This document shows, one piece after another, positions 19,737 to 37,613 of a DNA stretch of 64,000 bases. Within the stretch, counting starts at the first letter, position 1. Each line of letters starts with the position of its first letter. Both the position numbers and the translations under genes were made by a program. The stretch is from an uncultured Hormoscilla sp. (GTDB lineage Bacteria; Cyanobacteriota; Cyanobacteriia; Cyanobacteriales; Desertifilaceae), in the NCBI GenBank assembly GCA_963921275.4, contig OZ001293.3, positions 3,488,001 to 3,552,000 on the forward strand, written 5' to 3'. The notes beneath the pieces were generated by a model, which worked only from the letters and a program-made list of their open reading frames with translations, was not told the origin of the DNA and did no database searches.

Positions 19737-20672
19737 GTGCGATTCGTTCAGGCGTAAACTGGCGACGGTGAAGTCTGGTCTGGTTTCATTTGCCGGATAA
19801 CTCTGGTTATCATGGGGGTTAAATTTTCTCTCCCCAGGTGTGGGGGGTCGAGGGTACTACCGGTCCTTAGTGCTGCGGAGTCACATCGCCGTGGTGCTCC
19901 GCTAGGACTTAAATGTAGGATAGCTAGCAGCCTAAGCTAGTGACACCGCGCTAGGAAAGATGCTCATGGTTAGAACAAGCGAACCTGTGAAAGCTTCGTT
20001 AATAAGAACCAGCGGAATAAGGCTTATACGCTGGCCCAAAAGGGAAATGGCAGTTAGTGTTGGTAGTATTTGCTTACCAGCATCGCACTCGAAGAACTCT
20101 CCGGGTATAGCAGGAACCTAAAAGCATCGAGAAATGATACCAGGGAACGAAGTAACCTCACGTGAGCTGTCCCCATTTGGACCAGTTAGATGTAAAGCGC
20201 AAGCCGCGAAGAGGAAGGATGTTCTAAGAAGCCAACGCCTGGGGTAATGCCTGGGATATGCAGACGTGGGACGGATATGGTAAGAAGCCTTTGGTGAAAG
20301 TAGCCCTAACACGTCGCAAAACTTAGGAGAAATCCAAAAGTATGAATATGGACTAGAGTCTCAGCCGGGTAAAGTTCAGAGCCCCGATAAATTGCCAGAA
20401 TGGGGAAATGTTAGAGAAGAGCGGCTAGAATGGTTTGCTGAACTACCCTCCGCGATCGCGCAGCGTGCGCGCAGCGCATACCTTCCGGAGCTGAAATCAT
20501 TAACGGTCCAATAGGATTGACCATAAGAGGTAAAATTACAGAGGGTAAGGGGAATACGGGGTAACCTAATTATTGATGATGATATGCCTAAGGACAAGCC
20601 CCAGCGGTGAAAGTCGCAAGTCCGGAACTGCTCTTGGAGGGTTGGGGAGTGATTTCCAGCTCGACCCCGACC
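19737..20672 (+). mobile_element. ORF-less group II intron 2 (936 nt), damaged domain V
   Basis: GTGCGATTCG start, CTCGACCCCGACC end; removal gives ALKAD|VTRVRQILANL. Confidence 0.92.
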
Positions 20673-21429
20673 GTAACGAGGGTGCGCCAGATCCTGGCTA
20701 ACCTATTGGACAATGCGGTTAAATTCACGAATCAAGGGGAAGTGGTGGTCTCAGTCACAGCTGGCCTCCGAGACAACAACTCCGGCGGGCAGTCAAACCA
20801 GGAAGACCAGAAATATGAGGTCCATTTTACGGTCAAAGACACGGGCATTGAAATTCCAGAAAGCTGCTATCATCTGCTGTTCCAGTCTTTTTACCAGGTA
20901 GATAGCTCGACGACGCGCCCATACCCAGGCATGGGTTTGGGATTAGCGATCGCCAGACCTCTGGTGGAAATGATGGGCGGGAATATCTGGGTGGATAGCA
21001 ACGAGGGCGAAGGATCGACATTTTATTTCACGATTGTTGCCCCTGTTGCTGCTAGAACTGTCCGGATAGATCTTGACCAAGTGCAAGCCCAGCTGAGTGG
21101 CAAGCATCTGCTGATTGTAGAAAAAAATGCCACCAACAGACATATTCTCAGACAACAAACGCTCAAATGAGGCATGGTTCCCCAAGATGTCGCTACTAGC
21201 GAGCTGGCACTGGATTTGATTCGTCAAGATGCTCATTTCGACCTGGCGATTGTGGATATGCAGATGCTAGAAAATGCAGATGGCTCCCTGGTAGAGGAAA
21301 TTCGCAAGTATCGCGACCCGAGAACTCTACCCGTGGTGATGCTGACGGACATCGGTCATCAGTCGATCGAGCAAATGCCAGGGAATGTTGTTGCTTGCCT
21401 GACTAAACCGATCAAACCCTATGGGCTCT

Positions 21430-22300
21430 GTGCGATTCGTTCTAGCCTAACGTGGTCAAACACGGAACGCTAGCCCGGTTTCATTAGCCGGGAACTCTGA
21501 CCGCATGGGGGTTAAATTCCCCTCCCCCCAGGTACGGGGGTGACACCGGTCCTCGGTGCTACGAAGCGACATCATCGTGGTGCTAAGCGAGGACTCAAAT
21601 GTAGGATAACTGGCAGCCTAAGCCGGTGACGCCGCTAGGAAAGATATCCAAGGTTAGAGCAGGCAAACATGTGCAAGCCTCGTTATAAGGAACCAGCGAA
21701 ATAAGGCTATATGCGCTGGCCTAAAAAGGAAATGGTAGCTAGTATTAGTTTTAGACTCTGGCTAATATAGTACTCAAATAGCTCCCGGGGTATAGTGTGG
21801 ACCTAAAGGTATCGCGAAATGTTGTTAGGGAACGAAGTAACCTCTCGTGTGCTGTCCATCAGGACAAGTTAGATGTTAAGCGCAAGCCACGGGGGGAGGG
21901 ATGGCCCAAGAAGCGAATGCCCGGGGTAATTCCTGGGATAACATCTACAGTAATGTAGATGATGCTGGGTAGCCAGCGCTGACGTGGGTCGGTGATACTA
22001 GGAAGCTGCTGGAATGAGTAATCCTAAAAAGCCACGGAACTAATCCGAAACGCAAGTGGAGGATAAGGTATGGATAACTGGTAAAACTGACTTGAAAATG
22101 GTGATACTAACGGTTATCAGAACAACCACTCGCTAAACCAGGAAAGGGAAGAAAAGACAGGCGGCAAGGGCTAACGGAAGTAATTCCTATTAAGTCTACC
22201 TATGAAAAGGGCCTAGTACCCAGTAGCCGGATGCGGTGAAAATCGCAAGTCCGGTTCCGAAAGGGAGGGTCGGGAAGCGATTCCCGGCTCGACCCCATCC
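21430..22300 (+). mobile_element. ORF-less group II intron 3 (871 nt), near-identical to intron 1
   Basis: GTGCGATTCG start, intact DV/DVI, ends CGACCCCATCC; removal gives KPIKPYGLYNTLMNIF with a split T|AC codon. Confidence 0.95.
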
Positions 22301-34987: not shown

Positions 34988-35961
34988 AATTCACTCCTCG
35001 ATGATTGATTCAGGGTGCCCATCGCTTCTACCACTTGCCCAGAGATAAAAGGCAGGATGGCGGATGATTGACTTTGAGCTTTCCCCTCTGTAAACACTAC
35101 CAATAAATAGGGTTGCTTGTCTTTAATTTCTATGTAGGCGCAGTCATGGCGGACTTGGCTGTTACTGGCTTTTGGCACCAGTCTGCTGGGGCATGACCAA
35201 AGCCGGGCATCGGTGGGGAGTCCGCCGCCGAGGAAGCTGGTGTATGAATGGTTGGGGTCTGTTTCTAAATCATCTGGGTTGAGGGTCCGGTGAATTAGAT
35301 TCATCATGGCCTGGGTTGCCTGGGAGGATACGGCGACACCGCCTACTATACTATGGAGCAGGCGGGCGGTGGCATTGGTGGTGAGCATATTGCGATTTTC
35401 TTGTCTCGAGCCCAAAAAGGCCCGATCGCGTCCGTAGGCACCGTCACTCCAGGTTTTTTGATTGACGTTGATGCTCTCAAATTCTGGCCAACCGAGGGAT
35501 TGGAAGTAACGGTTGACGATATTGCGCTGGAACTTCCAGGTCTCAAAGGGTCCAGGGGGCAGTTCTGGACCGCTAGTAGTGCCAGTGAGGACATCTACCA
35601 CAAGACTGGTGGCGTCGTTGCTGTCTCGAACAATCATGTCACGAATGGCTCGTTCCAAGTCAGCTCCAGTTTCGATCATGTTTTTGTCTCGCCACTCATA
35701 GATAGCTACCAGATAAAATAGCTTGACCACATGGGCGGGGTAAATGCGTTCCACGCCACGATAGCTGAAACCTCGGACTTGGTGTCTCCAGAATTCGGCA
35801 GTAGAGAGGGCACCGCCAGTGTTGACGGGGAAAGGTGGATCGTAGAGGATCCAGGTAAGGGCAATTTGGTTGCGGGCTAGTCCTGAGAATTGTGCCCAGG
35901 TCTTCTCCAGGATGCGATCGCCCAATTTTTCTAGTTGTTCGTCTTTGCGGAAGAAAATCAT
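34984..35961 (-). CDS. Serine hydrolase, class A beta-lactamase-like
   Basis: YPAHVVKLFY (Ser of SxxK replaced by His), SNDAT, RHDCAYIE. Confidence 0.8.
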   Translation of the reverse strand: MIFFRKDEQLEKLGDRILEKTWAQFSGLARNQIALTWILYDPPFPVNTGGALSTAEFWRHQVRGFSYRGVERIYPAHVVKLFYLVAIYEWRDKNMIETGADLERAIRDMIVRDSNDATSLVVDVLTGTTSGPELPPGPFETWKFQRNIVNRYFQSLGWPEFESINVNQKTWSDGAYGRDRAFLGSRQENRNMLTTNATARLLHSIVGGVAVSSQATQAMMNLIHRTLNPDDLETDPNHSYTSFLGGGLPTDARLWSCPSRLVPKASNSQVRHDCAYIEIKDKQPYLLVVFTEGKAQSQSSAILPFISGQVVEAMGTLNQSSRSEL

Positions 35962-37613
35962 GGTTGAATTACTGCAAGCAAGCCGAGGCTCTGCTCAATC
36001 TACCACTGTTGAGTACAGTTGCCGCGTCAATCTGGATCTGTATGATGGGTCTGAATGTGCTAGTTTAGCAACCCAGGCTGCTGCGGGGCGTCAGTTGCGA
36101 GTGCTTTCGGTGCCACCAGGCCAGGAGGCTGTAGAAGTCTGCTTGTGCGAGGATGATTATCGCTGCTGGCTGTCAGGGCTAGATTTGCCGAAGCTGTCCT
36201 TAGCAGAAATGCCTTATCGGGCGATCGCCCTTTCGGACGCTGAGATTAAAGAACGCTTGCCAGGGGCGATCGCCTTTGCGCAAGAGGCCATGCAGCAGGT
36301 TAATTATTACCTTTGGGGCGGTACAGTTGGACCTAACTACGACTGTTCTGGTTTGATGCAGGCTGCTTTTTGCTCAGTAGGTATTTGGTTGCCTAGAGAT
36401 TCTTATCAGCAGGAGGCGTTTGTGCAGGAAATCCCAATAGTAAAATTACAACCAGGAGACCTAATTTTCTTTGGTTCGGCAGAGAAGGTTAACCACGTGG
36501 GACTATATTTAGGTGGTGCGATTCGTTCAGGCGTAAACTGGCGACGGTGAAGTCTGGTCTGGTTTCATTTGCCGGATAACTCTGGTTATCATGGGGGTTA
36601 AATTCCCTCTCCCCAGGTGTGGGGGTAACACCGGTCCTTAGTGCTGCGGGGTCACATCGCCGTGGTGCGGAGCTAGGACTTAAATGTAGGATAGCTGGCA
36701 GCCTAACCCAGTGACGCCGCTAGGAAAGATGCTCATGGTTAGAACAAGCGAACCTGTTAAAGCCTCGTTACATAGAACCAGCGGAATAAGGCTTATACGC
36801 TGGCCCAAAAGGGAAAATGGTAGTTAGTGTTGGTAGTCATCTATTGCCAGCATCGCACCCAAAGAACTCCCGGGGTATAGCAGGGGCCTACAAGCATCGA
36901 GAAATGATACCAGGGAACGAAGTAACCTCACGTGAGCTGTCCCCATTTGGACCAGTTAGATGTAAAGCGCAAGCCGCGAAGAGGAAGGATGTTCTAAGAA
37001 GCCAACGCCTGGGGTAATGCCTGGGATATGCAGACGTAGGACGGATATGGTAAGAAGCCTTTGGTGAAAGTAGCCCTAACACGTCGCAAAACTTAGGAGA
37101 AATCCAAAAGTATGAATATGGACTAGAGTCTCAGCCGGGTAAAGTTCAGAGCCCCGATAAATTGCCAGAATGGGGAAATGTTAGAGAAGAGCGGCTAGAA
37201 TGGTTTGCTGAACTACCCTCCGCGATCGCGCAGCGTGCGCGCAGCGCATACCTTCCGGAGCTGAAATCATTAACGGTCCAATAGGATTGACCATAAGGGG
37301 TAAAATTACAGAGGGTAAGGGGAATACGGGGTAACCCAATAATCCTACTGATGACAACAGCTTACCAACCAGTAGCCGGATGCGGTGAAAGTCGCAAGTC
37401 CGGTTCCGAAAGGGAGGGTTGGGGAGTGATTCCCAGCTCGACCCCGACCAGGGCAAGTACATTCATAGTTCCGGCAAGGATATGGGCAGAAATGGCATCG
37501 GCATTGACCTCTTATCGGAGCAAGGAGATGCTATTAGTCAAGCTTATTATCGCCTGTTACGGGGTGCTGGGCGGGTGCTTACCAGTTATCTACCAGGGGA
37601 TGGTAATTGGTGA
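35960..37613 (+). CDS. NlpC/P60 (C40) peptidase, split by intron 5; join(35960..36515,37450..37613), 239 aa
   Basis: YLWGG..NYDCSG, LPRDSYQQ, PGDLIFF, NHVGLYLG-E-GKYIHSSG; spliced length 720 nt with no other lesion seen. Confidence 0.9.
36516..37449 (+). mobile_element. ORF-less group II intron 5 (934 nt), intact
   Basis: GTGCGATTCG start, DV GTAGCCGGATGCGGTGAAAGTCGCAAGTCCGGTTC, ends CTCGACCCCGACC. Confidence 0.95.

Follow-up and report, generated by a model that had tools for sequence, protein, structure and literature searches.

We analysed a 64-kb stretch of DNA, the window, which is part of a cyanobacterial chromosome whose genes include psaA, psaB, psaL and one for a KaiB-domain protein. 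Repeat finding, alignment and BLAST showed that the window contains five related group II introns of 871-936 nt, all without an open reading frame (ORF), which we call W1 to W5. Each copy carries exon-binding sites (EBS1 and EBS2) that are complementary to its own 5' exon. It is highly probable that all five copies are paralogues among the bacterial group II introns of IIB (chloroplast-like) type, each ~0.9 kb long and ORF-less, that they form one family which spread in a Hormoscilla-like cyanobacterial lineage by means of a reverse transcriptase (RT) acting in trans, and that each recognizes its exons through EBS1, EBS2 and a probable EBS3.

Five intron copies and their catalytic domains

The five copies occupy the following positions:

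18046-18916, (-) strand: W1, 871 nt, without an ORF; first bases GTGTG, last bases ...CGACCCCATCC; inserted antisense in a hybrid sensor-kinase gene
19737-20672, (+) strand: W2, 936 nt, without an ORF; inserted in sense orientation between the HisKA and HATPase_c parts of the kinase gene; domain V has lost its lower helix
21430-22300, (+) strand: W3, 871 nt, without an ORF; in the same kinase gene as W2, inserted in sense orientation within the receiver domain
30458-31359, (+) strand: W4, 902 nt, without an ORF; in non-coding or decayed DNA, flanked by an IS630-like transposase remnant and a PAS-GGDEF-EAL gene with frameshifts
36516-37449, (+) strand: W5, 934 nt, without an ORF; inserted in sense orientation in an NlpC/P60 peptidase gene

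In BLAST alignments, W1 and W3 are 99.66% identical over 871 nt and lie at different sites in opposite orientations; since they differ at just 3 of 871 positions, copying must have been recent. Their two sites are unrelated and have in common only bases resembling intron-binding sites (IBS; CCCT..ATGGG..CT). W2 and W5 are 92.06% identical, W4 and W5 are 81.8% identical over 887 nt, and the W1/W3 type matches the W5 type at ~78% over the first ~515 nt.

Relatives outside the window came from a single genome scan with an invariant 17-mer, which returned at least 15 loci, and we compared the five introns with all 15 loci by BLAST. Among the loci listed, seven from Hormoscilla metagenome-assembled genomes (MAGs) hold members of the family (L003, L006, L007, L008 with two nested copies, L010, L013 and L015), and L002, L009 and L011 are more distant relatives that contain ORFs. 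L001, L004, L005, L012 and L014 had no match to an intron query among the W3 and W5 rows listed, and were treated as chance matches to the 17-mer. A search of a plasmid collection gave matches in 10 records, each covering at most 8% of the intron, and no close relative.

The introns begin with GTGCG in W2-W5 and GTGTG in W1 (GTGYG in all five), and their 3' ends read ...CGACCCC(AT/GA)CC. An empty site backs these ends: L007 carries, uninterrupted, the sequence of the outer intron that an inner intron breaks in L008. Excising W2 (19737-20672) restores the kinase frame (...LKAD|VTRVRQILANLL), excising W3 (21430-22300) restores the frame of the receiver domain (...KPYGL-Y-NTLMNIF), and excising W5 restores that of the NlpC/P60 peptidase (...HVGLYLG-E-GKYIHSSGKD), whose first exon has a Pfam NLPC_P60 match that ends at profile position 74 of 105. 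Around W4, the translated flanks contain no intact host ORF spanning the insertion.

Four of the five copies match the Rfam model RF00029 for domains V and VI at 44.3-47.7 bits, compared with a gathering score of 40:

18048-18124, (-) strand: RF00029 match in W1, 44.4 bits
22222-22298, (+) strand: RF00029 match in W3, 46.4 bits
31280-31358, (+) strand: RF00029 match in W4, 44.3 bits
37371-37448, (+) strand: RF00029 match in W5, 47.7 bits

No RF00029 match was found in W2 even at E<=1, and a permissive rescan of 14-42 kb added none. In the predicted folds of W1, W3, W4 and W5 (z-scores -2.1 to -4.2), domain V is canonical and domain VI has a bulged GA. The intron 3' end lies 1-2 nt past the end of the Rfam match, and the distance from the bulged A of domain VI to the splice site is accordingly 9 nt; the predicted domain VI helices of W1, W3 and W5 show this arrangement. 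W2 has lost the 5' strand of the lower domain V helix, and its fold contains no domain V hairpin (z-score +0.90). Lacking this helix, W2 is probably catalytically dead in the structural model, and so at least one member of the set is probably dead.

W2 departs from W5 in a patch at 20520-20600 (+) that takes in the 5' strand of domain V and sequence upstream of it. In its final ~70 nt, W2 is closer to W4 (85%) than to W5, and the remainder is W5-like, giving the copy a mosaic look. Judged from these similarities, recombination between copies may have shaped the 3' part of W2.

Parts of introns and nested introns were also seen. One fragment lies in the window:

60800-60870, (+) strand: ~70-nt 5'-end fragment of a related intron, starting GTGCGATTCG...; without an EBS region and without domain V

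The fragment has no RF00029 match, and unrelated sequence follows it directly. A similar short 5' fragment precedes the intron copy in L003 and L015, and each of these loci (L003 1748-2437, L015 2625-3307) has two intron copies that adjoin head to head in opposite orientations, one of them truncated after ~176 nt, so that two Hormoscilla assemblies have the same arrangement. L008 1683-3481, on a contig of Hormoscilla sp. GUM202, is a twintron in which an inner family member is inserted antisense exactly inside the EBS1 loop of the outer intron. The uninterrupted version of that outer intron in L007 lies at another site.

Guide loops and their pairing with the exons

A previous description of this DNA, made from its letters without database searches (the sequence-only reading), proposed that the copies carry different recognition loops, each complementary to its own insertion site. 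The span it considered, 19737-37449, runs from the 5' end of W2 to the 3' end of W5. We read its EBS1 hexamers for W2, W4 and W5 at exactly the coordinates it gave, and recomputing the EBS1-IBS1 pairs of all five copies returned its counts without change. Pair counts here and below allow G-U.

18588-18593, (-) strand: EBS1 of W1, AGACTC, intron positions 324-329; 4/6 with IBS1 GGAACT
20068-20073, (+) strand: EBS1 of W2, ATTTGC; 6/6 (5 Watson-Crick, 1 G-U) with GCAGAT
21753-21758, (+) strand: EBS1 of W3, AGACTC; 5/6 with GGCTCT
30775-30780, (+) strand: EBS1 of W4, ATTTTG; 5/6 with CAGATT
36838-36843, (+) strand: EBS1 of W5, CATCTA; 6/6 with TAGGTG
18656-18660, (-) strand: EBS2 pentamer of W1, TAAGG; 4/5 with CTTGA at exon -13..-9
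20002-20006, (+) strand: EBS2 pentamer of W2, ATAAG; 4/5 with CTTAA
21686-21690, (+) strand: EBS2 pentamer of W3, TAAGG; 4/5 with CCCTA
30709-30713, (+) strand: EBS2 pentamer of W4, TCTCA; 5/5 (one G-U) with TGGGA
36771-36775, (+) strand: EBS2 pentamer of W5, CATAG; 4/5 with CTATA
18917-18929, (-) strand: target of W1; IBS1 (-6..-1) at 18917-18922, two-base spacer, IBS2 (-13..-9) at 18925-18929
19724-19736, (+) strand: target of W2; IBS2 at 19724-19728, spacer, IBS1 at 19731-19736
21417-21429, (+) strand: target of W3; IBS2 at 21417-21421, spacer, IBS1 at 21424-21429
30445-30457, (+) strand: target of W4; IBS2 at 30445-30449, spacer, IBS1 at 30452-30457
36503-36515, (+) strand: target of W5; IBS2 at 36503-36507, spacer, IBS1 at 36510-36515

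The layout is thus a 6-nt EBS1 paired with exon positions -6 to -1 and a 5-nt EBS2 paired with -13 to -9, separated by a 2-nt spacer at -8/-7. For EBS2, the sequence-only reading gave hexamers said to track exon positions -13 to -8. Its counts (4/6, 5/6, 5/6 and 5/6) are arithmetically right, but the hexamers open with an A shared by the whole family; what varies is a pentamer, and it pairs with -13 to -9 instead. Over both elements combined, W1 forms 8 of 11 pairs and W3 9 of 11, and the copies with a unique EBS form 10-11 of 11.

We compared these matches with shuffled pairings of introns and exons. Among the matches listed, the family set comprises 12 sites, namely those of the window copies and of seven further copies from Hormoscilla MAGs; a larger set comprises 14 sites. 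Two copies were left out of the counts because their sites repeat others, L015a (same site as L003a) and L011 (same site as L009, used only in a corrected-register comparison described below), as were the fragments that lack an EBS region (L003b, L003c, L015b, L015c and the window fragment at 60800). The outer intron of L008 (L008o), interrupted by the inner one, is missing from our alignments A2 and A3, and its EBS1 was read for the pairing tests from the sequence flanking the inner intron. In the 14-site test, L002 and L009 were scored one base out of register (1/6 and 2/6), and we kept these low values in the totals.

At the 14 listed sites, 69 of 84 EBS1 cells pair (shuffle mean 35.8, standard deviation 5.1, maximum 57), as do 61 of 70 EBS2 cells (shuffle mean 31.3, standard deviation 4.1, maximum 52), and neither value was reached in any of 20000 shuffles. 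The signal depends on register: at the 12 listed family sites, EBS1 pairs in 66 of 72 cells at -6 to -1 compared with 21-35 of 72 in other registers, and EBS2 in 51 of 60 cells at -13 to -9 compared with 16-26 of 60. For the window copies alone, 47 of 55 cells pair, a value reached by 2 of the 120 permutations; one is the identity and the other swaps W1 and W3, because these two copies share their EBS. A separate count on alignment A3 (exon plus domain I, 11 copies) found 89.3% of 121 cells paired, against 48.1 +/- 3.7% when shuffled (0 of 500 shuffles reached the observed value). Sliding the partner by 1-3 columns reduced pairing to 36-46%, and all 11 pairs change on both sides.

The more distant ORF-containing relatives follow the same rule. 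In the same loop register as the family, a correction made post hoc, their EBS1 elements pair at 5/6 (L002), 6/6 (L009) and 6/6 (L011). The EBS2 pentamers of L002 and L009 pair at 5/5, and both the pentamer and the -13 to -9 bases of L011 are identical to those of L009. That the loops match their exons by mere chance complementarity of short AT-rich strings is refuted and has practically nothing left in its favour: six-base matches are common once G-U is allowed, non-cognate pairs averaging 2.3/6 and 2.0/5, but no shuffle in either test on the listed loci reached the observed values, the signal is confined to one register, and it holds in copies from other genomes.

The EBS elements also stand out by their rate of change. 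W2 and W5 differ at 31 of 460 aligned domain I columns, and these differences fall on 8 of the 11 EBS columns compared with 23 of the 449 others (Fisher p 2.4e-8), in agreement with the claim that these two introns are close relatives divergent in their EBS loops. Across the alignment, EBS columns are among the most variable in domain I, with a mean pairwise difference of 0.51-0.82 compared with 0.23 for all columns.

We then located these elements in a predicted domain I structure, using RNAalifold on 14 copies and on 11 copies (column numbers are those of alignment A2). The 11-copy fold has 109 predicted domain I pairs, 37 of them with compensatory changes, and leaves both EBS elements unpaired. 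EBS1 (columns 361-366) forms the terminal loop of hairpin 351-358/368-375, whose stem itself covaries: pair 352/374 is GC in 6 copies and AU in 5, and pair 355/371 is AU in 8 and GC in 3. The EBS2 pentamer (columns 293-297) lies in an unpaired stretch 2-3 nt 5' of helix 300-305/321-326, which has the invariant strands CCAGCG/CGCTGG. The predicted structure therefore puts the hexamers of the sequence-only reading in loops, as it had assumed.

For a third contact, we identified one candidate:

36878, (+) strand: candidate EBS3 of W5, located in an internal loop as the variable position of GGGGUA[N]AG; equivalents at 18553 (W1), 20108 (W2), 21793 (W3) and 30815 (W4)

No other domain I column shows complementarity to exon +1 in 6 or more of the 7 copies compared; this one gives 5 Watson-Crick pairs, 1 G-U and 1 mismatch, a count over few independent sites. 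In L010, which lies outside that column scan, the equivalent base is C and exon +1 is G, and the two are complementary. This one column points, weakly, to a probable single-base EBS3 pairing with exon +1.

No further contact with the exon emerged. A Watson-Crick EBS2a-IBS2a pair is not evident, as the bases after EBS2 are constant (AAC) and exon -14 is C in 3, A in 5, G in 2 and T in 2 of the 12 listed sites. An EBS2b-type pairing of the constant A with T at -8 is unsupported, T being found there in 3 of the 12. As the sequence-only reading had noted, the exons have no obvious sequence in common outside the IBS: we saw no conserved exon position there among the 12 listed sites, which are too few to infer the relaxed protein recognition it suggested. 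The only suggestive column, a pyrimidine at exon -18 in 11 of the 12, is not significant when the positions and base classes examined are allowed for.

Proposed spread of the family and alternative explanations

No copy has an ORF in its domain IV, and none of the 43 window ORFs scanned encodes an RT or maturase domain. A tblastn search of the window and all listed loci with the intron-encoded protein (IEP) of L009 (E<=10) gave no match inside any ORF-less copy, although this query may be too distant to detect a remnant. The L009 IEP itself has RVT_N, RVT_1 and GIIM domains, and its nearest match is the Thermosynechococcus elongatus RT of PDB 6ME0 (E 8.8e-99, residues 43-584). Since no IEP was found in the window or the Hormoscilla loci listed, we assume a protein that acts in trans. 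The sequence-only reading had described the copies as a library of re-programmed inserters on one scaffold. This description holds in that the copies are paralogous, have different EBS1 and EBS2 elements and are each complementary, beyond chance, to their own 5' exon; it fails in that they are not autonomous and that one of them, W2, is probably dead.

Following established group II biology, the copies would have spread by reverse splicing into DNA and subsequent target-primed reverse transcription, with the RT/maturase encoded elsewhere in the genome. New sites may first have been occupied with imperfect pairing through ectopic retrotransposition, as W1 and W3 would illustrate. EBS changes that restored pairing would then have persisted, since splicing and further homing both depend on pairing, and older, diverged copies would have arrived at near-complete pairing in this way; the order of the move and the EBS change is a proposal.

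Several observations weigh against this interpretation of a mobile IIB family. No RT/maturase gene was found in the window, and no IEP remnant in the window or the Hormoscilla loci listed. W2 has no foldable domain V, and W1 is antisense to its host gene, in which a stop and a frameshift also occur; for some copies, then, splicing does not matter, and their pairing cannot be put down to selection. The distance of the domain VI bulged A from the 3' end is 9 nt, where 7-8 nt is usual. RT-encoding IIB introns are reported to form an EBS2a-IBS2a pair, which is not evident in the window family. The link to the ORF-containing relatives consists of the shared 17-mer and an alignable domain I, not of overall similarity, and the BLAST matches of W5 in L002 and L011 extend over just 58-60 nt. 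Finally, the sample of relatives is one scan with at least 15 loci.

Some of these points would also fit a family that was once mobile and is now inactive in a decaying genome, so that the complementarity between EBS and IBS is a frozen record of insertion. The window has no IEP, domain V of W2 is broken, the host kinase gene has an in-frame stop, a frameshift and an antisense intron, the nearby PAS-GGDEF-EAL and patatin genes are split over several frames, and a 70-nt intron fragment lies at 60800. We consider this possible but on balance unlikely: W1 and W3 were copied recently, W1, W3, W4 and W5 keep canonical domain V and VI folds and score above the Rfam gathering score, and W3 and W5 lie at positions where excision restores the frame.

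A very improbable alternative is that the covariation arose only from selection for splicing after intron-containing segments had been duplicated or recombined as DNA, with no RNA-guided insertion. EBS-IBS pairing is needed for splicing whether or not an intron is mobile, and complementarity by itself is therefore no demonstration of retargeted mobility; the mosaic look of W2, with its W4-like last 70 nt, also fits exchange between copies as DNA. Against this, similarity between the copies ends exactly at GTGYG and ...CC, with flanks that are unrelated except at the IBS positions. The hosts are likewise unrelated (a kinase gene, an NlpC/P60 gene, intergenic DNA and another intron), and the inner intron of L008 lies precisely inside another intron whose empty site is known from L007. 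W1, antisense in its gene, is beyond the reach of splicing selection.

Retargeted spread of this kind has been described in T. elongatus. In the available portions of that account, 28 related IIB introns include 17 ORF-less copies that derive from one ancestor and are mobilised by the IEPs of other copies; six families (F1-F6), defined by EBS1, EBS2 and EBS3, each match their own sites, some copies are poorly matched, twintrons occur, and target recognition is almost wholly by RNA pairing (Mohr, Ghanem and Lambowitz 2010, PMC2882425). The window family resembles these ORF-less TeI3 and ORF-containing TeI4 introns in having a cyanobacterial host, an IIB ribozyme and many close copies that are mostly ORF-less; in EBS-defined families that match their own IBS, with poorly matched copies that are taken to reflect retrotransposition; and in introns inside introns and targets with little conservation beyond the IBS. 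In TeI3c, according to the available text (PMC10100991), IBS2 and IBS1 are 2 bp apart, as they are in the window family.

Compared with the same portions of the T. elongatus account (PMC2882425), the window family differs in four respects. Its Hormoscilla-like host is not a thermophile, as far as the names of related MAGs suggest, and the DNA melting at high temperature that was invoked for T. elongatus would then not apply. TeI3 keeps recognisable ORF termini, whereas tblastn detected none in domain IV of the window family. No IEP-encoding member of the family was found among the loci listed. Lastly, nested and antisense insertions occur here, W1 and the inner intron of L008 being examples.

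A second comparison is with EcI5 and T.el4h (Th.e.I3), the IIB1/chloroplast-like class 1 introns with a ribonucleoprotein structure (PDB 6ME0/6MEC), whose RT the L009 IEP matches, as described above. According to the available part of a study of IIB introns (PMC8643678), these have a 5-bp EBS2 adjoining the ID(iv) helix, an arrangement seen here as well. Unlike EcI5 and T.el4h as described there, the window copies have no IEP, their EBS2a-IBS2a pair is not evident and their domain VI bulged A is 9 nt from the 3' end; the same part of that study finds the EBS2a-IBS2a pair unsupported in ORF-less organellar introns (PMC8643678). Targetrons and the thermotargetron (Ll.LtrB, EcI5, TeI3c/4c) likewise redirect insertion through changes of EBS1, EBS2 and EBS3 on a fixed scaffold. 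These are engineered and supplied with their cognate RT, whereas the variation in the window is natural, has no RT in sight and is known here from sequence.

EBS-IBS pairing is the defining recognition mechanism of group II introns. Guide-loop variation from copy to copy is no new principle, then, but normal group II behaviour, and our understanding of how group II introns find their targets is unchanged. The pattern itself is already published; the novelty is a new candidate ORF-less IIB family, in a cyanobacterial lineage different from that of T. elongatus. In the literature library searched, we found no paper that treats group II introns together with Hormoscilla. The family provides a second natural case, after T. 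elongatus, of ORF-less IIB introns with diversified guide loops at unrelated sites, and a small natural data set on which EBS combinations one scaffold tolerates. It is also of use in annotation: a single kinase gene is interrupted by three of the insertions, and a peptidase gene interrupted by another would, without the intron, be annotated as truncated.

A bolder view, which we think has a small chance of being right, is that targets in this apparently non-thermophilic host would be chosen by ~11-12 RNA-DNA pairs alone, with no positions read by protein and no EBS2a pair. The density of five copies and a fragment in 64 kb would be unusual, and placements would often be unspliceable (antisense in a gene, antisense in an EBS1 loop), such that the family might directly drive gene loss in a decaying genome of symbiont type and be a candidate mesophilic targetron scaffold with minimal constraints. 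Should the RT that acts in trans be identified and prove to make few demands on target sequence at moderate temperature, builders of targetrons might take an interest in the scaffold.

Host genes and neighbouring repeats

The gene at 17750-23211 (+) that carries three of the insertions encodes a hybrid sensor kinase with a PilJ/NarX-like N-terminus, HisKA, HATPase_c, two receiver domains and Hpt. W1 is antisense in the N-terminal sensor part, where the (+) strand frame runs on across the insertion; W2 and W3 are sense. Its frame is broken by a stop at about 17.98 kb, in frame, and by a frameshift at about 19.62 kb, and to judge by these lesions the gene is probably a pseudogene.

Other genes of the region are also broken. 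A PAS-PAS-HisKA-GGDEF-EAL gene at 31294-34069 (+) extends across four reading frames that overlap, and a patatin-like gene at 26760-27744 (+) is split in two. These split genes suggest either widespread gene decay or sequencing frameshifts in the region. Directly upstream of W4, at 29371-30300 (+), are the IS630-like transposase remnants (HTH_32, DDE_3), in shifted frames.

The window also contains two pairs of repeats. A ~940 bp repeat, 95.6% identical, is present at 12270-13178 and 48054-48995; the second copy has a DDE_Tnp_1 transposase ORF (48070-48564), and the pair are insertion-sequence copies. The other, a direct repeat of ~840 bp, is found at 23269-24095 and 28269-29112, 5 kb apart and 95.7% identical, and carries a small minus-strand ORF without a Pfam match. 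Between its copies, at 24584-25081 (-), lies a stand-alone ORF for a 165-aa HNH endonuclease.

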